From a virus: 64,000 nucleotides of DNA. Below, one piece after another: positions 1 through 12,952 of the stretch. The DNA is taken from the IMG/VR virus record IMGVR_UViG_3300042558_005646. One strand, 5' to 3'. Below the pieces are notes generated by a model, which saw only the letters and a list, made by a program, of their open reading frames with translations, searched no databases and had not been told where the DNA came from. Within the stretch, counting starts at the first letter, position 1; each line of letters begins with the position of its first letter. A program made the position numbers and the translations under genes.

Positions 1-450
1 TACTTTGAGTTTATGAAAGATATAACAAGAAGTCATAGTCTTTCCAGCTCCAGTAGCAAGAGCAAGCATTCCACGTTGATTTTTAAGAGATAAGTCTCCT
101 GAAATCATTTGATAATCACGAAGATCTTTTCCCATAAAATCACAAGTTATATTGTAATCTCTAATGGGCTTTTCTCTTTTATCAGAAAATTTATATGTTA
201 CATTCAATTCATCAAAAAGACGAGCCACACGCATAGTAAGACCAGTAGGAAAAGATTGATTTCGCTTCACATAAAGAGAAATTCTTCCATCCCATTGACC
301 AGTTTTATACTTTGCAGACCATTCAGAATCAGGTACTTTATAGGAAAGTTCATTCCTTAAAGCTTCTTGATAAGGGAAGGGTAATTTTCCCATAGGATCG
401 TCGTGGTTTATGATGACACTTTTATCATTGTAAACTTCAACTTCTACCAT
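1..450 (-). CDS. uvsW: UvsW-like superfamily 2 DNA helicase, N-terminal 150 aa (runs off the left edge; absent from the ORF track)
   Basis: Hand translation from ATG at 450 gives MVEVEVYNDK...LSYKVPDSEWSAKYKTGQWDGRISLY...FPTGL...LRDYQ...GMLALATGAGKT, open to position 1. It shows the Q-motif LRDYQ, Walker A ATGAGKT and the WDGRI...PxGL N-terminal signature of T4 UvsW-type helicases. Confidence 0.85.
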   Translation of the reverse strand, partial: MVEVEVYNDKSVIINHDDPMGKLPFPYQEALRNELSYKVPDSEWSAKYKTGQWDGRISLYVKRNQSFPTGLTMRVARLFDELNVTYKFSDKREKPIRDYNITCDFMGKDLRDYQMISGDLSLKNQRGMLALATGAGKTMTSCYIFHKLKV

Positions 451-457
451 AATAACC

Positions 458-466
458 AGTATACCA
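458..466 (-). promoter_or_regulatory. Candidate extended -10 promoter (TGgTATACT) for a leaderless helicase transcript
   Basis: The minus strand reads TGG TATACT GGTTATT ATG: -10 hexamer 7 nt before the start codon, with no Shine-Dalgarno. Confidence 0.5.
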
Positions 467-472
467 TTAAAG

Positions 473-510
473 AAACAACCATTTTGTTGATGTCAACAAA
501 ATGGTTGTTT
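473..510. repeat. Perfect 18-bp inverted repeat with a 2-nt spacer
   Basis: AAACAACCATTTTGTTGA-TG-TCAACAAAATGGTTGTTT. The arms are exact reverse complements and lie in the gap between the 144-aa gene and the helicase. Confidence 0.95.
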
Positions 511-527
511 TGTGAAAGAAAGCAGTC

Positions 528-962
528 CTAACGATGATTCATTGCGTTGAATTTGTTAACTGCAATTTGAATTTGCTTTGGTTTCTTACCTACAAATGTT
601 TCCAATGTAGAAAGAACAAGCATATGTATCTTGTCAACATCTTCTTCAGATAATTCAATGCCTTTTTGAGCACATCCTAAACGAATGTATCTTACAAATT
701 GATCAACAGCATCATCCTGTGAGAATTCGCCATCTTGAATTTTCTTTAAGCCTTCAATCCAAATATCTAAAATTCCGTCTGCTTTTTCGCCCAATTTACT
801 GCGCAATACAAGCTTTACAACTTCAAGAGTTTGTAATGCAGCTGAACTTTCAGATTTAGATTTTGCCAAGAAAAAGAAAACTACACTGCCCAAAATAAAA
901 CAAACTACATAAATAATAATTTCATTCTGGGTTGATTTCAATAAATTAGTAAGAGATTCCAT
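528..962 (-). CDS. Single-pass membrane protein, possible LL-H-type holin (144 aa)
   Basis: N-terminal hydrophobic helix IIIYVVCFILGSVVFFFLA followed by KSK, then a helical soluble domain with KGIELSEEDVD. This layout resembles LL-H family holins; the resemblance was judged by eye. Confidence 0.4.
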   Translation of the reverse strand: MESLTNLLKSTQNEIIIYVVCFILGSVVFFFLAKSKSESSAALQTLEVVKLVLRSKLGEKADGILDIWIEGLKKIQDGEFSQDDAVDQFVRYIRLGCAQKGIELSEEDVDKIHMLVLSTLETFVGKKPKQIQIAVNKFNAMNHR

Positions 963-964
963 AG

Positions 965-1183
965 TTAGCAGTCCTTTGCGATTACGCTGTCATCATCATC
1001 AGATGCATTAGGATCAAGATCCATATTTGTAGTAGCAGGAATCACTAGTTCATCTTTAATTTGTGCAGTGACAGTTTCATCTTTCTTTTCATCAGCCCAA
1101 ACAAGATTAGTTGCATTTACTTCTTCGCCTTCAGCGCTTGTAAAATTTTCAATCTTACCTGTTGCTCTTTTTACCATACTCAT
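965..1183 (-). CDS. Small acidic hypothetical protein (72 aa)
   Basis: ATGA overlap with the dnaJ stop and a 2-nt gap to the next gene; acidic tail DDDDS. Confidence 0.7.
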
Positions 1184-2163
1184 AACATTTGCCTCCTTTT
1201 TCTAGAATCAACATATGATTTCAAAAATAAGGTTTCCTCTTCAGAAATATCTTTAGGAACCTTATACATTATTTTGAGATGTAAGTCAGAATATGTATCG
1301 TTTGAAGTTGGAATTCCCTTATTTTTGACAATATGTACATAACCATTTTTAAGACTAGTATTGAACTTAAAATTTAATTTGTTTCCGTTAACATGTGTAT
1401 ACTTGAACTCTGGATCAATCAATGCCATAACTGGATCAATTTCAAATTCATGAATTAAATTCAAGTTGGCATCAATCTCATATTTATCTCTCGGTTTGGT
1501 AATTACTTCTACGATAAGAGGACCTGGTGCTTGATGAATATCACCATGATTGCCTCTGCCATTAATCATTGTAGAACGATATACATGGCCTTTATTGATA
1601 GTTAGATCAAAGTTTTCATAAATCTTTACATGACCAGAACCATTGCAGTAATTACAGAAAGACTCAAACTTTTCACCACGCCCATAACAATCCTGACAAG
1701 GCCCAGCATAATTTCTTACATGCATGAACCCTAAATTTTGAATAATGTAATGTTCACCTGATCCCATACAGGTCATACAAACGTTTACATTTCCTCTACC
1801 ACCTGCCCCAGAACAAGCACCACATGGAGCTAATCTTTCATAATTCAGGTTTTTAACTACATTTCTATAGATTTCTTCTAATTCAAGTTCAATTGTTGCT
1901 GTAATTGGTGTGTTTAAATTACGTCTAAATGCATTTTGCGGCGTATTTCTGAAAGGATTAAATGGAGGTTCAAAATGCGGCTGTTGAGGTGGGGGATTTA
2001 ATATATCTTCATAAGCTTGAGATATTTCTTTGAATTTTTCTTCAGCGTTTGCTTCTTTATTGACATCAGGATGATATTGTTTTGCTAACTTACGATAAGC
2101 TTTTTTAACATCATCTAATGAGGAATTCTGAGGTAAACCTAGTACATCGTATGGGTTTGGCAT
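1180..2163 (-). CDS. dnaJ: Class A DnaJ/Hsp40 co-chaperone (327 aa)
   Basis: J-domain (NPYDVLGL...[16 protein letters not shown]), four CxxCxGxG motifs ([32 protein letters not shown]) and a C-terminal peptide-binding domain ending VPKDISEEE. Confidence 0.95.
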
Positions 2164-2169
2164 AAAATC

Positions 2170-2175
2170 ATTATA
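2170..2175 (-). promoter_or_regulatory. Candidate -10 element for leaderless dnaJ
   Basis: TATAAT GATTTT ATG. The hexamer overlaps the upstream TAA stop; no SD. Confidence 0.45.
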
Positions 2176-2845
2176 CTAATTTGGATAGCATATTAGTAAT
2201 TTTATTGGAAGGGCATACTGCATTTTCACCAACTCCAATATCAGCATGTTGTCCTGTTACACCCATTATTGTACCTATAACTAAATTATCAGTGCCAATG
2301 ACCATTCCGCCTGAAGAACCTTCTAAAATGTCTGCATCTACAAAAATGATATCATTCCAAGCTGGCATATTAGGATCATTGATAGTTTGGTGTACGTTCG
2401 AAACTCTACCAACTGTAGCTGTGTCGTGAAAGCCTTCTGGAGATCCGATAACAGCAACTATATCTCCTACCTCAACGGAATCGCTATTAACAAGCCTTAA
2501 TTCAGGAATGTTGTCAGGTACTCTTTCAATTCTGATTGCTCCTGAATCAATATTTGGATCAGATATCAAAAAAGTTGCTGGAATAAAATTTTTATTATCA
2601 AATGAAACTAATATTTCAGTTAATGTTTCATCGTTCGGAACTACATGTCCAGCAGTAATTACAATGTTATTACCAATATAAAAACCACTGCCTGACCAAT
2701 TTTTTTTACCAGATCTTACGTAGATAGAACAAGAAGATTGAAGGCCCAGTTGTATTGTTTTTTTAACTGGATCTTCAATCTTTTCTGTGCTCTGGCTAGT
2801 CTTTATCAAACCATCCAAATAATTTACGTCTAATTTAAAATTCAT
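2171..2845 (-). CDS. Trypsin-like serine protease (S1, HtrA-type catalytic domain, no PDZ, no signal peptide; 224 aa)
   Basis: Catalytic triad motifs VITAGHVV (His), DPNIDSGAI (Asp) and [11 protein letters not shown] (Ser); also AVIGSPEG...TATVGRVS, typical of HtrA-like domains. Confidence 0.9.
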
Positions 2846-3300
2846 TGTATTACTTTGTACAAAATGTCTTTTTCATCAATAGTTCCAAATCTTCTACTAT
2901 CATCAGATTCATTAAGATTGTCTCCAACTAAATAATAATGATCTTTTGGTACTTTCAATTCCATCATATAAACGTCATCTAAACTTTTGTATTCCAAGAT
3001 TGAATGATAAGAGTTATCAACTATAAGTTGAAAAACTCCATTTTTTTTCATCATGTAGTAATAGTATTCTTCTGGAGTATACAATATTCTTTTAACAATC
3101 AAACTTCTATCATCACTCAAAGCTACTACGATATCGCTTTTTTTAAAATCTTTAGTTCTTTTTGCCAACAATATTTGTCTATTTTTATATGTAGGCATCA
3201 TTGAACGACCAACAACTACTACTAATTTGTATGGCTGACAGTAAGCCAATAACAATAGAATACAACCAATTACCAAAGAAACTAATAATCTCTTTTTCAT
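2842..3300 (-). CDS. lepB: Signal peptidase I family peptidase (S26; 152 aa)
   Basis: N-terminal membrane anchor, box B GRSMMPT (catalytic Ser), box D IVKRI (catalytic Lys), box E GDNLNESDDSRRFG. SD GAGGTG 4 nt upstream; ATGA overlap with the next gene. Confidence 0.92.
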   Translation of the reverse strand: MKKRLLVSLVIGCILLLLAYCQPYKLVVVVGRSMMPTYKNRQILLAKRTKDFKKSDIVVALSDDRSLIVKRILYTPEEYYYYMMKKNGVFQLIVDNSYHSILEYKSLDDVYMMELKVPKDHYYLVGDNLNESDDSRRFGTIDEKDILYKVIQ

Positions 3301-3362
3301 GCTTCACCTCTTGTAATAAAAGGAGCTGAAGACATTTCTTTTTTTTAGCTTTTTGCTCGTAG

Positions 3363-4325
3363 TTAAGATTTTTTAACAGTAATAGTTGACCAATCAATAT
3401 TTGCAAGTTTAGGAACTCCAGGTCCCCAATTCTGTTCGTCTCCAGGTTGAACATGAACATTTTGCAAACTTGAAATATTTCTTAAAGCAACCATCATGTC
3501 TTCTTGACAGAATTGATTTCCAAATTCAGGAAGAAGATTTTGATTCTTTAAGCCTGCTTTTATCAATGCGCAAATACCAGCAACAAATGGAGATGCTTGA
3601 CTTGTGCCTGACATTTTACAATAGTTTCCATTCAAGTGAGTGGAATAAATATTAGTGCCAGGAGCAACAATATCTACTGTAAAATCTTTTGATGTGAAAG
3701 TGGCAAGATTTCCACTTTCATCTAAAGCAGCAACAGCAATTACTTCATCGTATCTAGCTGGATAATTAACTGCATGAGAATCATTTCCAGCTGCTGCAAC
3801 TACAACAATACCCTTTGACACCGCTTCTTTGATCAAATCATGAATAAATGATGGAGGCTCAGATGGAGCTCCCAAGGACATATTAATAATGTCTACGTTT
3901 AAGTCAATTGCTTTTCTCAAGCCTGCTGCTATAGTGTCATAGCTTCCACCGCCACTATTATCAAGAACTCTAATAGCATAACATTTTGCTTTGGGAGCCA
4001 CGCCAACTACGCCAAAATCATTATCAGAACCAGCAATAATTCCAGCTACGTGAACACCATGTCCACTGCCTTGATCATTAACACTTGCGTCAGCAGAGCA
4101 GTTTACAGCTTCTTCTAATTTCCAAGCCTCAACCAAGTCAGGATGTTCTGAGAAACCTGTATCTAGAATTGCTACTTTTATACCTTCACCCTGCTTTGAA
4201 ACTTGCCAAACATCTTGAATGTTTGCTAGAGACATACCCCAGTTTTGGGTTTGAGACAGTGCTGCAAACGGAACCGATACAACTTTTAAGTCTTCTTCAG
4301 GAATAAATTGAATTTTGTCTTGCAT
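3363..4325 (-). CDS. Subtilisin-family serine protease (S8, intracellular-subtilisin-like; about 320 aa)
   Basis: VAILDTG (Asp), GHGVHVAGII (His), AAAGND (oxyanion Asn), SGTSQASPFVAG (Ser). Start moved from GTG 4334 to ATG 4325 because GAGGTG lies 6 nt upstream of it. No signal peptide or long prodomain. Confidence 0.95.
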   Translation of the reverse strand: MQDKIQFIPEEDLKVVSVPFAALSQTQNWGMSLANIQDVWQVSKQGEGIKVAILDTGFSEHPDLVEAWKLEEAVNCSADASVNDQGSGHGVHVAGIIAGSDNDFGVVGVAPKAKCYAIRVLDNSGGGSYDTIAAGLRKAIDLNVDIINMSLGAPSEPPSFIHDLIKEAVSKGIVVVAAAGNDSHAVNYPARYDEVIAVAALDESGNLATFTSKDFTVDIVAPGTNIYSTHLNGNYCKMSGTSQASPFVAGICALIKAGLKNQNLLPEFGNQFCQEDMMVALRNISSLQNVHVQPGDEQNWGPGVPKLANIDWSTITVKKS

Positions 4326-4343
4326 TTTGTTCACCTCGATACA

Positions 4344-4349
4344 AGTATA
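4344..4349 (-). promoter_or_regulatory. Candidate -10 element for the protease/DnaJ cassette
   Basis: TATACT TGTATC GAGGTG AACAAA ATG in the short gap between the 2857-aa gene and the subtilisin gene. Confidence 0.4.
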
Positions 4350-4378
4350 TTATTCTTTATATAATTTTCCCAATTCCT

Positions 4379-7300
4379 TTACACAATGTAAAGAACTTGA
4401 CTTTCTATTGGTGTTCCGTAAGTTGTTCCATCATAAGGTTTGACTATGAAAGATATTGCCATATTTCTTAAAACGACAGCTGGATTAAGCAAACTACCTT
4501 CAGAAATTTTATTTGAAACACCATTTGTCCATTCAAACCATTCAATAGTAGAAAGATCAGAACTTCCATTGAAATTATAATATGCTTGCAATGAACTATT
4601 TGCTGATATTTTATTGTCAATAATGGTATTCAAGGATTTAATTTGAACGTCGTACACATAAGGAGCAGATAAAGATCTAATTACAATTGGTTCAGAAGTA
4701 TACATGATTCCATAATCAAAATTGTCATTTGGCTCTAATGTCACATAAACGATATCATTAATCTTAAAATAATCATTAGCTGCATTCAAATCTGATTTTC
4801 TTTGAACCAATCTATCTCTGTAGTTTGGTGAAGAGTCCAATTCTATGGTTGTCGTCCCTCCACCTGAAACTCTAGTTCTGTACCATCTTGTTTTTGGCTT
4901 GTATTGCTTGTTGTCAGATAAATAATTGTAATCAACGTAAATTCTTGATGAACTAGCAATTTGGGTAGAAGATCCGACAGAAGCAAATGAAACATCTGAT
5001 TTCAATGCCAAACTTTCAGCCTTTAAGGATGGAATGTTTGTATTTAAGTAATGAGAGTAAACATTTGAATTAGGCACTGAATTTTGTGTGAATTCAAAGT
5101 TGTAAGTACTTGATGCTGTTGAAGCATATGTCTCAACTTTAAGTCCTAATCTATAATCAGAACTTTGCAAGATAAATACAGTAATAATATCGCTAGAAGA
5201 TTTATTAGTGTCAAATATTATTTTTCCATCATAACGATCTAATTTATATCCGCCACGAACTATTTCATTGTTGATTAAAACTACAATTTTACTATCTTCA
5301 GGCCATCTTCCATTTATAGCAAAATAGTTCTTATAGTCGGTAGAAACAGTGCCTTCTCCAAAAGCCTCATATCTTGTTCCTATTCTGCTTATAGAAACTT
5401 GAACAAGATTACCAGACAATACTTCTTGTCTGAATGTTATTGTTCCATTTACATTGTCGATTGTGTAAAGATTTGAGGTAAGAAGTGAAGAGTTTAAATA
5501 GACTTCAACTGTATCTGTCAACGACCAAGTAAATCTTTCATTATTGTTATAGACAAAATATGTAAAATTGTTATTTACTGACTTGATGCAAGTAAGTTTT
5601 TCAAAAGAAGCTACATTTGTATATTTATAAGATCTTTGTCTAGAAGAAATTATCCCATTATTATTTTTAATAAGTTCTTCATAATCATTCCAGTTTGTAC
5701 TATTACCCTTACAAATACCCCAAGTCAATTTTGCTTTATCGGTGTCAGAATAATCAGTTGAAAGAATGTATTCAAAGATATCATCAGTTGAAGTAAGAGC
5801 AGTTGTAAAGAAATAGTTTACAGCTGGAGAAACTTCTATGTAATACAGTTGGCTGACATACGGAGAAACAGGAAGGCTTGTAACATTATTCCATCCTTCA
5901 GTCATATCAATTTGGAAATTTAAGTTTGTAATTTCTTTATTGAGAGTAGATGTTGAAGTAAGAGTAATCCAATCACTATAGTTCTTTTTATCAGAAGAAT
6001 ACTTGTATTTGACTGTGCAGGCACTATCTACACTCTGACCTGTAGAAACCGTGTACGCAGTAGTAATTGACTTAATAAATTTAGGAGTGTCAAATTCTAC
6101 TTCTTTCTTCCAATAGCCAGCAAATAATGAATTAACTCCGCCGTGCAATAAAGAAGTAGTTATTCCAGCCCAGTATGAAGAACTAGCATCAAAATAAAGA
6201 CCACTTGTATTTTGAACTAATTGTCTTAAGTTTCCAGAGTTTATCTTATCATCAACACCAAAAGCAACTAATTTCGTACCTTGATTTCCCCAGCTATAAT
6301 TTATATTGTTTTCTAAACTTAAAATAGATACTGCATTATCGTTGTCAGCATCAGAAACAACGAATGTCAATGGAATATATAAACTGGCTAATCTTTCCAT
6401 CATATACTTTGAAACCGTAGTATTTGCTGGAATTGTGTCTGCTAACCCATTCCAATCTTGTCTCAAATATACAACAACTGAATCTGTGCTACCAATTGAT
6501 GAAGTGAAAGATACTTTGCCTGTTGATGGTATTACAGTAAATCCTGAACCCAAAGTAGTTCCATTTTTGACAACTTCAGCATATGGATAGTCTGTTGTAT
6601 TCCAAGTGAAAGTATTAGTTCCATCAGTAGAAAATGTAAGAGTTGATCCTGTAGAGCTTCCTGTTTTTGGAACTAGATTTAACTGCTTGTTGCTTTCATT
6701 CTTATATCTTGTCTTGAGCAAATCAAGTCTTATCAAATTTTCATCTGACAAGTAATCCTTGTAAGTTGAAATCAAAGATGTGTCTGCAATACCTGAAATT
6801 GCTGCTGGTTGCTGTCCAATTAGAGCGTACTCAAGGCAGTCATACAAGTTGCTATTATCGCCATCATATTTCAATGATCCAATGATAGAAGTGATTGCGA
6901 TTCCAGAGTTTGTAAACCCGCTTCCTGTCTCGTGCTTTATGCTAGTGCCAAATGTCCAAAGATCTGCAAAAGAAAATTGAGCATAGTATTGTTGATTAGT
7001 TCTAGTAAAAATATTTGTAATCAGATTGTTGAAATCGTTTGAGAATCCTGATGACATCTTCATAGAAGCAGAATTATCAAAAACGTTTGATATTACAAAT
7101 TTAGGCTTTAGATATAAGTAGCCATCATCACTAGAAATAACACCTTTGCTTTTTCCACTATCCCAATTAACTTCAGTGTTATTGTAATTACCAATAGGAA
7201 CAATAGTTTCTATTGGAGCATAAGCATTGTCATAATGTGCTTGAAAGAAGAAGTCATAACTTGTACTAATTCCTGTCCAAGTTATAGCATTTGCACTAGT

Positions 7301-10300
7301 ATATCCATATCCAGAATAAGGATTACTTGTAGATGCTTTTTTCCACTTAAAGATTGGAATAGAACTTGCTGTTTCTTTAATAACAAGGGCTAAAGTTGTT
7401 GATCCTGTTCCTGGTATATCTAATGCACTAATAAGATTGAAACTTGTAAATCCACCAACATTTACACTTGAAGATGTGATAGGACTTGAAGCAGCTAATT
7501 GAGTTTGTGGCCTTATATTGGCGTCAACAGAGTAAACATAAGCAGTAAGAGTTGTATTTGCAAGACTGTCATTATATGAAGAATTTGCAATGTTGTCTTG
7601 TTCTCTAATTGACAGGAATGCAGATACTTTTGAAATTGTGCTTGCAGTTGAAGATGTAGTAAATGTCTGCGCTAAATATCCGACTGAAGAACTATCATTA
7701 TTTATAAATCTGATGTCATTTGAAGGCTTGGATGCAAATAGTACTGGACTATATCCTTCACTTGTATTTTCACCAGTTCTATACCAGCAATCACCATCAT
7801 CAAGTGTGTACCAAATTCCATTATTACTACAAGCAACTAAAACATTTTGAGTGATGCTGTCAAATGTAGAAGAAAAGACTTGAAGATCATAAACACAAGT
7901 TGGAAGTGTACCAATGTAGTCTGATCTTTCAAAAGAATTTCCCTCATCAAAAGATCTGTAAACTCCATCATTTGTTCCGATGTAAATTTTAGATTTGCCA
8001 GGAGTAGATCCAATAGCGGCTTCAGTGTCAATTGCATAAGAGAAACAATGTAGTCCTCTCAAATATCTGCTCTCAACAATGAAGTCAGAAGAATTTAAAT
8101 CATCTGGATAAGAATATTTCCAATTTCTTACTTTTAAAATACCATCATTAGTAAGAATAAATAATGGATTTGCATATTCTGATTTCTTTGTAAGTGAAGG
8201 AACGCTATATGCTTGAAAAGATTTATAGAATTTGTTTACGCCTTCAGGATTTCCAGCATTGAACATTTTTCTCGGAACAAGGAATGAAGAGAATGTTGAA
8301 TATTGTGTGCTATTTGTCATAACATAATATCCATCGTCTCCTGCTGCGTGTAAACTTTCAAATTCAGATACAGTTCCAGCACTATTCTTTGTATACGTAC
8401 CTTTGAAAAGTCCATTTACATTATTCGAAGTAAGTTTTAGGAAGTCAGATAGGAAAGTAGTAGAACCAAGCTTAATACTTAATCCATCACTAGTTGCAAA
8501 TGCTTCAAATAAAGAACCATTCCAGAAACCAGTGAGATATGCATTTTGTCTTGCTGATGAAGTTTGTTTTTGCCAAGTTGTGTCAAACTTCCAAAGCCCA
8601 TTAGAAGCGCCAACAATTATTTCAAGATTCGGATTATATGAAATATAACTGGTATCAAAAGCACTGTCTAATGTGCTTTCAAGCTCCCAATATCCAGTAT
8701 ATTTCCAAACACCCTTTTCAGTAATTATTCTTGTACCTGTGCCATCTTTTGTCAAACCAATAATTCCCTTGACTTGGATTGGATCACTTTCAAAATCATT
8801 TACTGTTGGAATTAATTCTGTTCTGTTTTTGAATGATGAATTTAAACTATCAAAACTAGCATTACTTGAGAAATTATTAATTAATAAAGTGTTCTTAAGT
8901 CCTCTTGTATCTGTTTGTGATATAAATGGCGCAGTAAAGTCAAATATAGTTGAATTTATTGATTTGATTTTTCTTGCTAACTCTTGAATATTGGAATTAT
9001 TTTCAGATGCCAAGTTGTATGTCTGATTTGAAATTGCAAGATAAAGATCATCTTCCAATCCAGAAACAATCTCATTTTTAATACCATATACTTCTGTACC
9101 AACATCAAATGTAGTAGTGCTTGTAAGTCTTGCTACAGATAATGAGATTTCTGAAGGAAAAGAAGTATTATCAATTGATTTTATTATGGCAATTTCATAA
9201 TTATTGCCATTCTTCAATTCTATCAGAGAATAATTTTCTATATCTTGATTGACATATATTTTAGTGTCTGTATTTGAGTTTGCTCTAGCTAGTAATGCAA
9301 TAGGTTTTTTTGTTTTATATAGTGGAACAAATGTTGAAGAATGAGGTTTTGTTCCAGCATCCGATATTGTTGGAAAATCATGAACTACAGACAATTTTAC
9401 ATTATCAATATCTTTTTTAAGTACTGATTGGGTAAATGTTATTTTGCCTTCAGACGCATTGGAATAAAATGGAATTGTACTTGGTTCATTGTTGATATAA
9501 GTAATTATTCTTGTGCTATCAGTTTGTGTATTATTCCAAGGATTTGTTGTGAAAGTATTGAAACTTCTTTCATAGAATAGCTGATTACCAGGCACATATG
9601 AAGTTCCAATTGATACCATTTGATAAGGATAATTTAAGGAAAAGCTAGTTATTTGATTATATTCTTTATCAAAAACTGCAAACTCTGTATCATTTTCGCT
9701 AAATGTATCATTGGCTCTTTTCCATCGATAATCAAGAGAAAGAGTGTTTGAAATATTTACATCTTGCCAAAGAAGTTCTGTGCTAATGAAAATGCCGTTG
9801 TTTGTTCCAGCATATAATTTTCCATAATTTGAAGTATCATCATAACTATAAAGAGCATTTACTGATCCTTGGAAGACAGGTTCCCAAAATAATTCAGTAT
9901 ATGCTGTTGTAGATCCAAAAGATGTTTCTTGTAGTCTTGCAATTCCATTTGAATGACCAACTAAATAATCAGTTGGAAATGTAGTTGAATTTCTTTGAAC
10001 TACGCAATTAATGATATTACTAGAACCAGCCCCAGTAGGAGTTGAATTTTGATATATCTTAAGTCTCTGAACTTCCCATACAACATCAGAAGTTCCAAAA
10101 TTAAACGCATCTTCAACTACAAGGTGCCAAGAGCTATCAGCATTAATTGTTCCGCTTAAGACGTAAACAGTTTTCCAATTGATGAATTCAGCGTTGACAT
10201 CTAATTCAGTTGATCTTGTCCAACTTCCAGCAGATGCAACATAAATTCCATTCTCTGATTTAGTTGTTTGGTTCTTAACTAAAACAATATTACCAGCACT

Positions 10301-12952
10301 TACAGATACACCATCAATTATTTGTGTTCCTGTTAGTGAGATATCCCCAGTAGTAGCACATAAAGCATTACTAAAAGAAGTAGTAGGTTGCGAGAATGGA
10401 AGAGACCAATACTTACCTGTAGCATCTTCAATATACTTTGCAGTGTGAGTTATAAATGCTTGATAATCATTCCACCAGATAATATTATTTTTGTAAGTGC
10501 CATCTTGAATCCAATAAATTCCCTTTACTGGCTCGTCAAATATTTGTAATAATTGGCTAAAGTCTCCGTAGTAAAGTCCTTTAGTGCTTGTACCTATTGC
10601 TCCAATGTATAACGCTCTTTGAATAGTGACATCATCTTCAGCATTTTCAACAAAAGTAGTTTTTTGAACAGATATTTCTTCAATTCCAGAAAGATTATAG
10701 ATATTAGTTATTGCAGTACCTGAGCTATTATAAAAACTTGAAATTTCACTCCAATTCCAATTTTGATAAGCTGTATTGTCTGGAATGATACTGTAATAAA
10801 CTTTATCGTTTGTCAAACCATATTGATAAGTTTGATAAGATCCGTCTGCAGTTTTATCAGAAGAAATCTTAAAAGCACTTATGGTTTTTGCTATTCCGCT
10901 TTCTGTTATAGGAAGTTTTAATTCAGACCATACATCCTCAGTATCTTTATAATAAACTTTCCCTAAAGTTGTTGATGCATAAACTTTCTTAAAATAATTT
11001 TCATTTGTCGGATAAATTATATTGTCTTGTAGTGATAATATTTTTCCAAAATCATTTTGCCAGTTTGTAGTTTGTGCTGTGTTGCTATTGATATTAAATT
11101 GAAACAAACCCCTAGAAGAAGCAACATAAATTAAATTTAAACTAGAAAAAATATTTGCACTTTTATAGAAGAAGCATAAACTATCATTGTATTGAATGGA
11201 CGAATTTGTATTCTGAGGATATAAGTATGATTTTCCGATACCTGTTACTAAGAATTTATCAGGAACGAAAGTCAAAGTTTCTTTATATCTATTCTCGCTA
11301 AAATGGTTTATTCTTAAGTTATTGAGTGATATTTTACCAGTTGATATACTGTCTGCAGATAAACTATTGATAAAATCATTTGAAAGTGAATTTCTAATTT
11401 CTTCTTTGCGAGAGATAATAATTACTCTTAAATCTGAAAATGTGAAGTTATCATAGTTAGGTATTGAACTCTTGAGGAGTATTGTTCCAGAATACGGATT
11501 GATTTCATAATTTACTGGTTCAATAAGATTTTCTGACAAATAAACTTTTGCATCATTATATTGAAAATCTGTCCAAGAAAAATAATTGTACTTATCTGTA
11601 GTAACTCCAAGAGCGTCAGTAAATTGATAAATCGTGCCATCTGTCAAACTTATATAACTTTCAAAGACTAATGAACTTGAAAGCAAAGCTTGATTGACAT
11701 CTATAGCAAAAAGAGTTTTGTCAGTAGAATATGGCAAATATACTTCTATTTTAGAAGTTGCCTTTATATTTTGATATAAATATAATTTATTTGTTTCACT
11801 TATTGAATAATCTGAAGTAGAAAGTATAGTTCCATCGAGTTTTACAACAGGAGTGCCGTATCTTGTCAAAGATTCGTTAAAAATTGATCCATCAGACTTC
11901 TTGAGTACAAAAATATTGGTATTGTCATAAGAAAGACTTCCATCATTATTTGATGCAAACAAGACTAGATAATTTCCTAAATCTATTTTGGAAGCTGAAT
12001 TAATTTCTCCCAAATGTTTGTGTTTGAGGTATGAAAGTTGAAGTTGTCTTTGAAATTCTCCTGAAGATTCATTTATTTGATTTCTTCTTTCTTCATATAT
12101 TATTTCTGAAATAACATTATAATCAGTATATGTTGGGTCTGCTTTATAAATTACAGTTGCAAGATAGACTGCATTCGAATATGTGTTGTATTTAGCATCA
12201 GGAATTAATGGGCAAGTAATATTACATACTTCATCAGATAAAGTAGATATTCCAGACTCAGCCCAGACATAAAAAATATTACCAATTGTTTGCCTAAAGT
12301 AATATGGTTTTTCTGTCTTTGCTGCATATTTATCAATGATGCCATCGCCTGTGCTAACTTTTATGCACTGTTTGAAAGCATTTTCAAAATATAAATTACT
12401 TGTATCTAATGTAAAGTTTGACGATGCAACACTGCCAATCCATAAAGTTTTTTGATTTACTGTGCCTGAACTTACATAAACAACAAAGTTATCAGAATAA
12501 TCTGAAGAAGAATTAAGTAAAGAATGTCTAGTCCATGAGCCAGAGGCGACAGTATAAACGCCATTTTGAGAAGATGTGGATTGATTTTTCACTAATACCA
12601 AATCACCAACTACTACAGAAATACCATCTATTGTTTGAGTATTGGATAAAGTAATATTTGTAGTTGTAGCTGCTAAACAAGTTATAGAAAAATTAAGATT
12701 CAATAAAGCAAGTTTTTGACCATATTCGCTTGATGCACTAGAATTGTATCCATCAAGAAGCAAAATTTGATCAGCTCTACTATCTTCTAACTTTGTTACA
12801 TTCCACCCATTGATGATTCCAGGCCCAAAGAAAGAGTATATGCCTGAAAAATTGGTTTCAGCTGTAAGCATATTTTCATAGTCATAACCTGGATACCAAA
12901 TATCGCCAAACGATGAATATAAAAACTTGTAAATTGATGTACGATTAGCCAT
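4379..12952 (-). CDS. Giant multi-domain virion protein, probably tail fibre or baseplate appendage (2857 aa)
   Basis: Two copies of the phage fibre module xATTxNITLxxxQxIDGxxVxxGxxVLVKNQxxxxxNGxY; BNR-like propeller motifs (IYIGTNDGVYRSFDEG, NNGIWYTLDDG); six ~40-aa beta modules; two C-terminal Ig-like repeats (RWYRTR...VTLEPND; IEWFEW...FIVKPYDG). No signal peptide. Confidence 0.7.
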   Translation of the reverse strand: MANRTSIYKFLYSSFGDIWYPGYDYENMLTAETNFSGIYSFFGPGIINGWNVTKLEDSRADQILLLDGYNSSASSEYGQKLALLNLNFSITCLAATTTNITLSNTQTIDGISVVVGDLVLVKNQSTSSQNGVYTVASGSWTRHSLLNSSSDYSDNFVVYVSSGTVNQKTLWIGSVASSNFTLDTSNLYFENAFKQCIKVSTGDGIIDKYAAKTEKPYYFRQTIGNIFYVWAESGISTLSDEVCNITCPLIPDAKYNTYSNAVYLATVIYKADPTYTDYNVISEIIYEERRNQINESSGEFQRQLQLSYLKHKHLGEINSASKIDLGNYLVLFASNNDGSLSYDNTNIFVLKKSDGSIFNESLTRYGTPVVKLDGTILSTSDYSISETNKLYLYQNIKATSKIEVYLPYSTDKTLFAIDVNQALLSSSLVFESYISLTDGTIYQFTDALGVTTDKYNYFSWTDFQYNDAKVYLSENLIEPVNYEINPYSGTILLKSSIPNYDNFTFSDLRVIIISRKEEIRNSLSNDFINSLSADSISTGKISLNNLRINHFSENRYKETLTFVPDKFLVTGIGKSYLYPQNTNSSIQYNDSLCFFYKSANIFSSLNLIYVASSRGLFQFNINSNTAQTTNWQNDFGKILSLQDNIIYPTNENYFKKVYASTTLGKVYYKDTEDVWSELKLPITESGIAKTISAFKISSDKTADGSYQTYQYGLTNDKVYYSIIPDNTAYQNWNWSEISSFYNSSGTAITNIYNLSGIEEISVQKTTFVENAEDDVTIQRALYIGAIGTSTKGLYYGDFSQLLQIFDEPVKGIYWIQDGTYKNNIIWWNDYQAFITHTAKYIEDATGKYWSLPFSQPTTSFSNALCATTGDISLTGTQIIDGVSVSAGNIVLVKNQTTKSENGIYVASAGSWTRSTELDVNAEFINWKTVYVLSGTINADSSWHLVVEDAFNFGTSDVVWEVQRLKIYQNSTPTGAGSSNIINCVVQRNSTTFPTDYLVGHSNGIARLQETSFGSTTAYTELFWEPVFQGSVNALYSYDDTSNYGKLYAGTNNGIFISTELLWQDVNISNTLSLDYRWKRANDTFSENDTEFAVFDKEYNQITSFSLNYPYQMVSIGTSYVPGNQLFYERSFNTFTTNPWNNTQTDSTRIITYINNEPSTIPFYSNASEGKITFTQSVLKKDIDNVKLSVVHDFPTISDAGTKPHSSTFVPLYKTKKPIALLARANSNTDTKIYVNQDIENYSLIELKNGNNYEIAIIKSIDNTSFPSEISLSVARLTSTTTFDVGTEVYGIKNEIVSGLEDDLYLAISNQTYNLASENNSNIQELARKIKSINSTIFDFTAPFISQTDTRGLKNTLLINNFSSNASFDSLNSSFKNRTELIPTVNDFESDPIQVKGIIGLTKDGTGTRIITEKGVWKYTGYWELESTLDSAFDTSYISYNPNLEIIVGASNGLWKFDTTWQKQTSSARQNAYLTGFWNGSLFEAFATSDGLSIKLGSTTFLSDFLKLTSNNVNGLFKGTYTKNSAGTVSEFESLHAAGDDGYYVMTNSTQYSTFSSFLVPRKMFNAGNPEGVNKFYKSFQAYSVPSLTKKSEYANPLFILTNDGILKVRNWKYSYPDDLNSSDFIVESRYLRGLHCFSYAIDTEAAIGSTPGKSKIYIGTNDGVYRSFDEGNSFERSDYIGTLPTCVYDLQVFSSTFDSITQNVLVACSNNGIWYTLDDGDCWYRTGENTSEGYSPVLFASKPSNDIRFINNDSSSVGYLAQTFTTSSTASTISKVSAFLSIREQDNIANSSYNDSLANTTLTAYVYSVDANIRPQTQLAASSPITSSSVNVGGFTSFNLISALDIPGTGSTTLALVIKETASSIPIFKWKKASTSNPYSGYGYTSANAITWTGISTSYDFFFQAHYDNAYAPIETIVPIGNYNNTEVNWDSGKSKGVISSDDGYLYLKPKFVISNVFDNSASMKMSSGFSNDFNNLITNIFTRTNQQYYAQFSFADLWTFGTSIKHETGSGFTNSGIAITSIIGSLKYDGDNSNLYDCLEYALIGQQPAAISGIADTSLISTYKDYLSDENLIRLDLLKTRYKNESNKQLNLVPKTGSSTGSTLTFSTDGTNTFTWNTTDYPYAEVVKNGTTLGSGFTVIPSTGKVSFTSSIGSTDSVVVYLRQDWNGLADTIPANTTVSKYMMERLASLYIPLTFVVSDADNDNAVSILSLENNINYSWGNQGTKLVAFGVDDKINSGNLRQLVQNTSGLYFDASSSYWAGITTSLLHGGVNSLFAGYWKKEVEFDTPKFIKSITTAYTVSTGQSVDSACTVKYKYSSDKKNYSDWITLTSTSTLNKEITNLNFQIDMTEGWNNVTSLPVSPYVSQLYYIEVSPAVNYFFTTALTSTDDIFEYILSTDYSDTDKAKLTWGICKGNSTNWNDYEELIKNNNGIISSRQRSYKYTNVASFEKLTCIKSVNNNFTYFVYNNNERFTWSLTDTVEVYLNSSLLTSNLYTIDNVNGTITFRQEVLSGNLVQVSISRIGTRYEAFGEGTVSTDYKNYFAINGRWPEDSKIVVLINNEIVRGGYKLDRYDGKIIFDTNKSSSDIITVFILQSSDYRLGLKVETYASTASSTYNFEFTQNSVPNSNVYSHYLNTNIPSLKAESLALKSDVSFASVGSSTQIASSSRIYVDYNYLSDNKQYKPKTRWYRTRVSGGGTTTIELDSSPNYRDRLVQRKSDLNAANDYFKINDIVYVTLEPNDNFDYGIMYTSEPIVIRSLSAPYVYDVQIKSLNTIIDNKISANSSLQAYYNFNGSSDLSTIEWFEWTNGVSNKISEGSLLNPAVVLRNMAISFIVKPYDGTTYGTPIESQVLYIV

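Follow-up and report, generated by a model that had tools for sequence, protein, structure and literature searches.

Four adjacent genes on the minus strand of an uncultured phage (IMG/VR virus record IMGVR_UViG_3300042558_005646), which code for serine proteases of the families S8, S26 and S1 and for a DnaJ-type co-chaperone, raise the question of whether their products work together as one machine or are neighbours with different places of action. The whole stretch of DNA that was analysed, called the window below, is 64,000 nucleotides (nt) long, and the four genes lie between its positions 1180 and 4325. Our preferred answer, to which we would give a probability of roughly 0.45, is that the genes form a conserved island of accessory protein-handling functions, which is expressed in two units and whose four enzymes most likely act in different places, and not as one machine.

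The genes themselves can be assigned with scores far above chance. The S8 subtilase (320 amino acids (aa), positions 3363–4325) matches the Pfam family Peptidase_S8 (PF00082) with 198 bits, the S26 type I signal peptidase (152 aa, 2842–3300) reaches 78.6 bits on TIGR02227 against a cut-off of 47, the S1 protein (224 aa, 2171–2845) is an HtrA-like protease domain with 73 bits on Trypsin_2 (PF13365) and further HtrA-type NCBIfam matches, and the DnaJ-type protein (327 aa, 1180–2163) is matched by Pfam DnaJ, DnaJ_CXXCXGXG and DnaJ_C. The first-pass annotation of this DNA had described four co-oriented genes that abut or overlap, with every catalytic or functional motif intact, and in these respects it was right: all four genes are on the minus strand, there are gaps of 62 nt between S8 and S26 and of 7 nt between S1 and DnaJ and a 4-nt overlap of S26 with S1, and the motifs are invariant in relatives. 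It had also placed the start of S8 at a GTG at 4334, which had to be corrected, as this GTG lies within the ribosome-binding site GAGGTG, and the gene starts behind it with the ATG at 4325. All four genes belong to known families, as members or variants; new are their conserved arrangement, a signal peptidase in a phage and a leader-tagged HtrA protease, and both the combination and the phage-borne signal peptidase appear to be undescribed. A set of three serine proteases beside phage Hsp70/DnaJ is mentioned in none of the jumbo-phage surveys searched, and no phage-encoded signal peptidase was found in the literature searched.

The source contig of the window (121,334 bp) has a CheckV completeness of 27%, and a 358-kb relative has one of 89%. 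Since the two are collinear, and since the two ends of the relative's contig are joined in the source contig, the latter is taken to be a fragment of a jumbo phage of approximately 360 kb with about 33% G+C. The four genes occur together in all of the approximately 25 related phage loci examined, with S8 identities of 46–94%, and the order S8, S26, S1, DnaJ, small open reading frame (ORF), membrane ORF, UvsW, small ORF, Hsp70 is found in every related locus from IMG/VR and ENA that reaches far enough, being retained down to 26% identity for S26 and 27% for DnaJ. Two lake contigs from ENA (our loci L016 and L017) form a sister clade with 45–46% G+C, compared with 32–34% in the rest of the lineage, and keep the whole gene order. 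The ratio of nonsynonymous to synonymous substitution rates (dN/dS), determined against close relatives, is 0.04–0.12 for all four genes, which indicates purifying selection, and their catalytic or functional motifs do not vary across 15–28 homologues. Conservation, low dN/dS and invariant residues together exclude a recent host capture with relaxed selection, so that the expectation that the genes would recur together in related phages, and not as recent independent captures, is upheld. What looked like a truncated DnaJ in the relative L011 is a scaffold gap of 100 N, and no natural deletion.

Homologue searches with S26 and S1 returned this phage lineage only, and no cellular donor emerged from them. 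A DNA search of 50,697 GenBank phages did not turn up any relative of the region; its only matches were short ones to DnaJ, which were taken, uninspected, for host contamination or unrelated dnaJ genes. Variants of the lineage are very numerous in freshwater metagenomes, and for the S1 gene alone, there are hundreds of variants at 86–90% identity in lake metagenomes; because the lineage is this abundant, the role of the enzymes, whatever it is, should be ecologically common.

The division into two expression units follows from how the genes start. S8 and S26 have strong Shine-Dalgarno sites, and the start of S1 is coupled to the stop of S26 through an ATGA overlap, which is conserved in most relatives. 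At the end of the upstream operon of giant genes, S8 would be translated from a Shine-Dalgarno site of its own. DnaJ starts in a different way, as it has a GTATAAT −10 element (2170–2176, minus strand) 6 nt 5′ of its ATG, and elements of this kind are found 6–7 nt before the ATG of DnaJ, UvsW and Hsp70, each without a Shine-Dalgarno site and each conserved across relatives; the element upstream of DnaJ is kept even in L016, with its 46% G+C. When the class GTAYAMT-N6/7-ATG was counted genome-wide in the 358-kb relative, it was present at 16 annotated starts against approximately 0.7 expected, and it is therefore a real promoter class for leaderless transcripts. S8 and S26 are outside this class. 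The claim that the genes have their own −10 elements consequently holds for DnaJ only, since generic sigma-70-like matches in window positions 1–5200 do not exceed chance (19 matches against 22.8 expected).

Behind DnaJ lie an acidic ORF of 72 aa (orf72, 965–1183, minus strand), which overlaps the DnaJ stop, has no family match and is conserved in relatives (dN/dS computed), and orf144 (144 aa, 528–962, minus strand), the last gene of the unit, which has one N-terminal transmembrane segment according to a hydrophobicity scan, a helical remainder and no Pfam or PHROG match, and which is also conserved. It is followed by a terminator-like hairpin (474–509, minus strand), with a perfect stem of 14–16 bp and then a T-rich run, which was recognised by direct reading of the sequence and is also present in L003, L007 and L010; our terminator scan missed it because its rule needs G+C-rich stems and this stem is AT-rich. 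Since the conserved DnaJ promoter is common to Hsp70, and since the hairpin comes after orf144, DnaJ heads a unit of its own that is regulated like Hsp70. It would open a leaderless transcript that runs through orf72 and the membrane protein orf144 to the terminator.

The phage Hsp70 (563 aa, 538 bits on Pfam HSP70; L015:2408-4099, plus strand of that locus, which equals G000:C1:92332-94023) is located approximately 3 kb downstream of DnaJ on DnaJ's strand, outside the window, some 2 kb past window position 1. In every relative whose sequence extends to this point it is conserved, and the gene after it codes for a MerC-family membrane protein, while the small ORF before it has no informative relative. 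The HPD motif and the four CxxCxGxG repeats of DnaJ are invariant in 15 sequences. DnaJ is probably the co-chaperone of the phage Hsp70 under a common promoter class, by which the phage would gain its own Hsp70 system; as no GrpE was found, nucleotide exchange would be supplied by the host or be unnecessary.

Jumbo phages carry scattered chaperone genes. DnaK and DnaJ are known from freshwater jumbo phages (the 'moraphages', PMC12619734), DnaJ/DnaK are sporadic in jumbo phages (PMC7824862), and Lak megaphages have DnaK and DnaJ-like genes side by side, without proteases. What the present phage has in common with the Lak megaphages, the moraphages and phage RB43, with its J-domain protein Rki, is that a large phage has its own J-protein and sometimes its own Hsp70. 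It differs from the DnaK/DnaJ pairs of huge phages in that DnaJ is located directly behind three serine proteases, and subtilisin, HtrA and signal peptidase are all unmentioned in the papers on huge-phage DnaK/DnaJ that were searched.

The S8 protein belongs to its family without difficulty, as D55, H89, S242 and the oxyanion residue N181 are unvarying in 28 sequences, and the AlphaFold2 (AF2) model (mean predicted local confidence, pLDDT, 87.6) has subtilisin structural matches with a TM of 0.91 and Z of 39–41. It has neither a signal peptide (the N-terminus is not hydrophobic) nor an I9 prodomain, and Pfam finds the catalytic domain only. Its N-terminal extension of 23 residues, with F7 and P9 near-invariant, is modelled with a pLDDT of 60–80. 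Mature subtilisins align from residue 24 of the model, and residues 1–23 are covered only by unprocessed pro-subtilisins (Z of approximately 41) and by 2x8j, the precursor of the Bacillus clausii intracellular subtilisin (ISP), with alignments that start at residues 1–3; in 2x8j, 292 residues are aligned from S8 residue 3. With the ISPs of Bacillus and Planococcus (2x8j, 2wv7, 6f9m), the phage enzyme shares the S8 catalytic domain, the lack of a signal peptide and of a large prodomain, and a short N-terminal extension with a conserved hydrophobic-hydrophobic-Pro motif approximately 46 residues before the catalytic Asp, and its predicted extension superposes on that of the ISP precursor. It differs from them in being phage-encoded, and its identity to them (about 37%) does not exceed that to secreted subtilisins. 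In ISPs, the extension's LIPY/F motif is inhibitory (PMC6220982). From the model, S8 may be a cytoplasmic, self-inhibited protease, made as a precursor in which the F-I-P extension would lie in the active-site cleft until it is removed.

The S26 protein should work on the other side of the membrane. Its S33, M34, P36, K70, R71 and the G126-D-N..S..D-S-R.F-G box are invariant in 12–16 sequences and contain the Ser/Lys dyad, and its N-terminus has a basic stretch followed by a hydrophobic segment of 18–20 residues, which fits an N-in anchor. As this arrangement is that of single-anchor signal peptidases, the active site should face outside the cytoplasm, and cytoplasmic virion proteins should therefore be unreachable for it. 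It resembles signal peptidases of the LepB/SipS type (TIGR02227) in scoring above the curated cut-off, in the single N-terminal anchor and in the SM.P, KR and GDN..S.DSR.FG boxes, and differs from them in being very short, phage-encoded and translationally coupled to an HtrA-like gene. S26 would cut Sec signal peptides, including those of exported proteins encoded by the phage: classic AFA↓Q-type signal peptides are present on at least four proteins of the 358-kb relative, which further encodes a DUF1559 pilin-like protein. Such exported-protein candidates were unmatched in three fragmentary records, which do not cover that region. Among the 50,697 GenBank phage records, signal peptidase matches are present in five, all short and unannotated, which we suspect, unchecked, to be host DNA. 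In another low-G+C phage group (L049:4742-7702 and L051:4652-7696), a GH108 endolysin, a leader-tagged ORF (K-L-A-Q or R-I-A-Q), an S26 gene and an ORF of 414–424 aa follow each other; this S26 is 39–40% identical, stands two genes after the endolysin, and has no S8, S1 or DnaJ nearby.

For the S1 protein, H67, D100 and S178 (G-x-S178-GG) are invariant in relatives, and its model matches the protease domains of HtrA1, M. tuberculosis (Mtb) HtrA and DegP with Z of 23–24, from model residues 16–25 on. The likeness to HtrA/DegP/DegQ lies in the fold of the protease domain and the His/Asp/Ser triad. Unlike them, the phage protein has no PDZ match and ends with the protease domain at residue 224, it has neither signal peptide nor anchor, its score on TIGR02037 is 80 bits against a cut-off of 416, and it begins with an extra leader. 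This leader of approximately 18 residues ends in K-T-S-Q (window 2792–2803), and the end motif is present in all orthologues, while the flanks vary. In the proteins of the lineage, [KR]-[TVIALSF]-[AS]-Q is 4.5–5.3-fold enriched in the first 45 residues over elsewhere (26 against 5.8 expected in the 358-kb relative, p of approximately 6e-10; 6 against 1.1 in the source contig). A GH108 muramidase ORF has a leader very like that of S1, and the other carriers include several proteins that start with M-W-Y-K/R-x-A-Q.

In T4 and phiKZ, capsid-targeting leaders are cut by the prohead protease. The class described here is similar to the T4 internal proteins with gp21 and to the phiKZ head proteins with gp175, as unrelated proteins carry a short conserved leader with a fixed end motif and there is a separate head-maturation protease; it differs in its motif, K-x-[AS]-Q instead of x-x-E. 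The head-maturation protease domain was found in the 358-kb relative, in residues 82–242 of an ORF of 1379 aa (L021:3855-7994, minus strand; phrog_18299, E of 4e-20); the rest of this ORF has no match, and it may be a protease-scaffold fusion. S8, S26 and S1 have no match to a head-protease PHROG, and PF03420, the T4-type prohead protease, has no match anywhere, control genomes included, so that it is uninformative. By analogy with T4 and phiKZ, the leader would mark S1, the GH108 muramidase and about two dozen other proteins for loading into the particle, where it would then be trimmed by the separate head-maturation protease, and S1 would be particle cargo.

Several observations weigh against the reading of two units with separately acting enzymes. 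Adjacency of the four genes over such deep divergence, together with the conserved S26/S1 overlap, could reflect a common function. The places of action that we assign to the enzymes are partly open to doubt as well: K-x-[AS]-Q as a cleaved, capsid-targeting leader is a candidate role, suggested by analogy; the candidate clients of S26 come from one relative, from genome regions outside the cover of the source contig, and some have raised G+C; and the S8 motif F7-I8-P9-E10 departs from the ISP pattern [LVI]-[IFLV]-P-[YFH] (PMC6220982) at positions 1 and 4 and agrees with it at the other two, for which reason we class S8 as ISP-like and not as an ISP proper. No GrpE Pfam match was found in four records, the 89%-complete one included. 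DnaJ had been annotated as class A, and its J domain, zinc-finger repeats and C-terminal domains agree with this, whereas the linker (approximately residues 56–85) is rich in Pro, Gln and Phe and has no Gly, where a Gly/Phe-rich one is typical of the class, and TIGR02349 gives 197 bits, below the equivalog cut-off of 377.

The first-pass annotation had favoured a dedicated folding, maturation or quality-control module for the giant virion proteins, and a proteostasis role in general is plausible. In this explanation, DnaJ/Hsp70 would fold, and S8 and S1 would trim or clear, the giant virion proteins of the upstream genes, which total some 15,000 aa. The ORF directly upstream of S8 (2857 aa, 4379–12952, minus strand) has no family match, is presumed to be virion or tail-fibre-like, and precedes S8 in most relatives, with 53 nt between its stop at 4379 and the S8 ATG and no terminator between them; the block is conserved, the genes of tail-fibre chaperones classically stand right behind those of the fibres (textbook knowledge), and a review predicts that jumbo-phage DnaJ proteins help folding and assembly (PMC7824862). 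That the giant ORFs are tail genes, as had been stated, is backed by one baseplate-hub match (in an ORF of 966 aa) and by PKD, PA14 and Ig-like domains, with little else behind the label. Against a single module stands that DnaJ has its own conserved promoter, in common with UvsW and Hsp70, that the active site of S26 should be extracytoplasmic and S1 has a leader of the cargo type, and that in L017 a block of 6.5 kb on the opposite strand lies between the giant gene and S8. Relatives of S26 and S8 in other phages are, moreover, not beside giant structural genes (the closest S8 in a cultured phage is among replication genes), and conserved adjacency is here indistinguishable from whole-genome collinearity. 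We therefore find the single module unsupported as such and consider it rather unlikely. As for the block in L017 (L017:1496-7683, minus strand), it contains a Ser/Thr protein kinase and a PP2C phosphatase.

The same leader that speaks against a tail-protein module suggests delivery of S1 with the virion, and so fits host takeover or counter-defence, the alternative named by the first-pass annotation, in which S8 in the cytoplasm, S26 in the envelope and S1, ejected from the particle at entry, would degrade host regulators or defence proteins, while DnaJ/Hsp70 would neutralise chaperone-dependent defences. The promoters of DnaJ, UvsW and Hsp70 resemble −10 elements of host sigma-70, which fits early or middle expression, a counter-defence role of phage heat-shock proteins has been raised (PMC12619734), and S8 has a weak NCBIfam match to the anti-phage S8 family IteS, S8 enzymes being found in such conflict. 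However, neither a target nor a defence-system neighbour nor an inhibitor-like partner came to light, S8 and S26 are led by Shine-Dalgarno sites at the end of a structural operon, outside the −10 class, and S26 is without any tie to defence, so that we hold this explanation to be improbable, too. An envelope set for entry or exit, in which S26, S1 and orf144 would act on the cell envelope, by processing phage proteins that are exported and cleaving envelope proteins at entry or lysis, and S8 and DnaJ are unrelated neighbours, seems to us distinctly unlikely, and the least probable of those considered. It would explain the S26/S1 overlap of most relatives, the S26 gene near a GH108 endolysin in L049 and L051, the leader common to S1 and the GH108 muramidase and the transmembrane segment of orf144, and HtrA proteases are normally envelope enzymes (according to textbooks and the structural matches); yet S1 lacks both a signal peptide and an anchor, the GH108 gene of the source genome itself is approximately 23 kb away, and orf144 belongs to the DnaJ unit and not to the S26-S1 unit. 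The enzymes could finally be joined in a network that spans compartments, with a private Hsp70/DnaJ, a self-inhibited subtilisin, a signal peptidase that sustains phage export after host shut-off, and a PDZ-less HtrA that is loaded into the particle together with a muramidase, by means of the K-x-[AS]-Q leader, and ejected into the host envelope at infection. We regard this as a long shot, comparable with the tail-protein and takeover explanations; if true, it would mean a virion-delivered envelope protease, which is apparently undescribed.

What the locus means depends on its parts. If the phage-borne signal peptidase is confirmed, the virus invests in the export pathway of its host, and a confirmed leader-tagged HtrA protease would extend the known types of virion cargo; should the enzymes be ordinary housekeeping copies, what is left of the finding is a good annotation for an uncultured jumbo phage.

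Two minor features complete the map. The spacer between S8 and S26 (3301–3362, minus strand) contains the conserved blocks AAGAGC and AGCTCTTCTT as well as the S26 Shine-Dalgarno site AGAGGTGA, and in single-sequence folds the CT-rich block pairs with this site; as covariation is absent and the consensus fold reaches only −1.56 kcal/mol, a structure in the spacer is a lead only. At the other end of the DnaJ unit, positions 1–465 (minus strand) hold the 5′ part of the gene for the UvsW-type helicase (588 aa when complete), with its −10 element GGTATACT at 458–465, 7 nt before the ATG at 450.

The host is hinted at by the strong Shine-Dalgarno sites and by the DUF1559 pilin-like gene of the 358-kb relative only. 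The strong GAGGTG ribosome-binding sites are a poor fit to the Bacteroidota host that is predicted for the moraphages, in which respect the present lineage differs from them. The pilin-like gene (N_methyl and DUF1559; L026:2190-3086, minus strand) stands beside the gene of a small secreted protein (L026:1765-2073, minus strand), and DUF1559 is typical of Planctomycetota and Verrucomicrobiota. With 0.39–0.45, the G+C of the two genes is above the phage mean of 0.34, and the pair may be a recent capture from the host and, as such, a hint to it.

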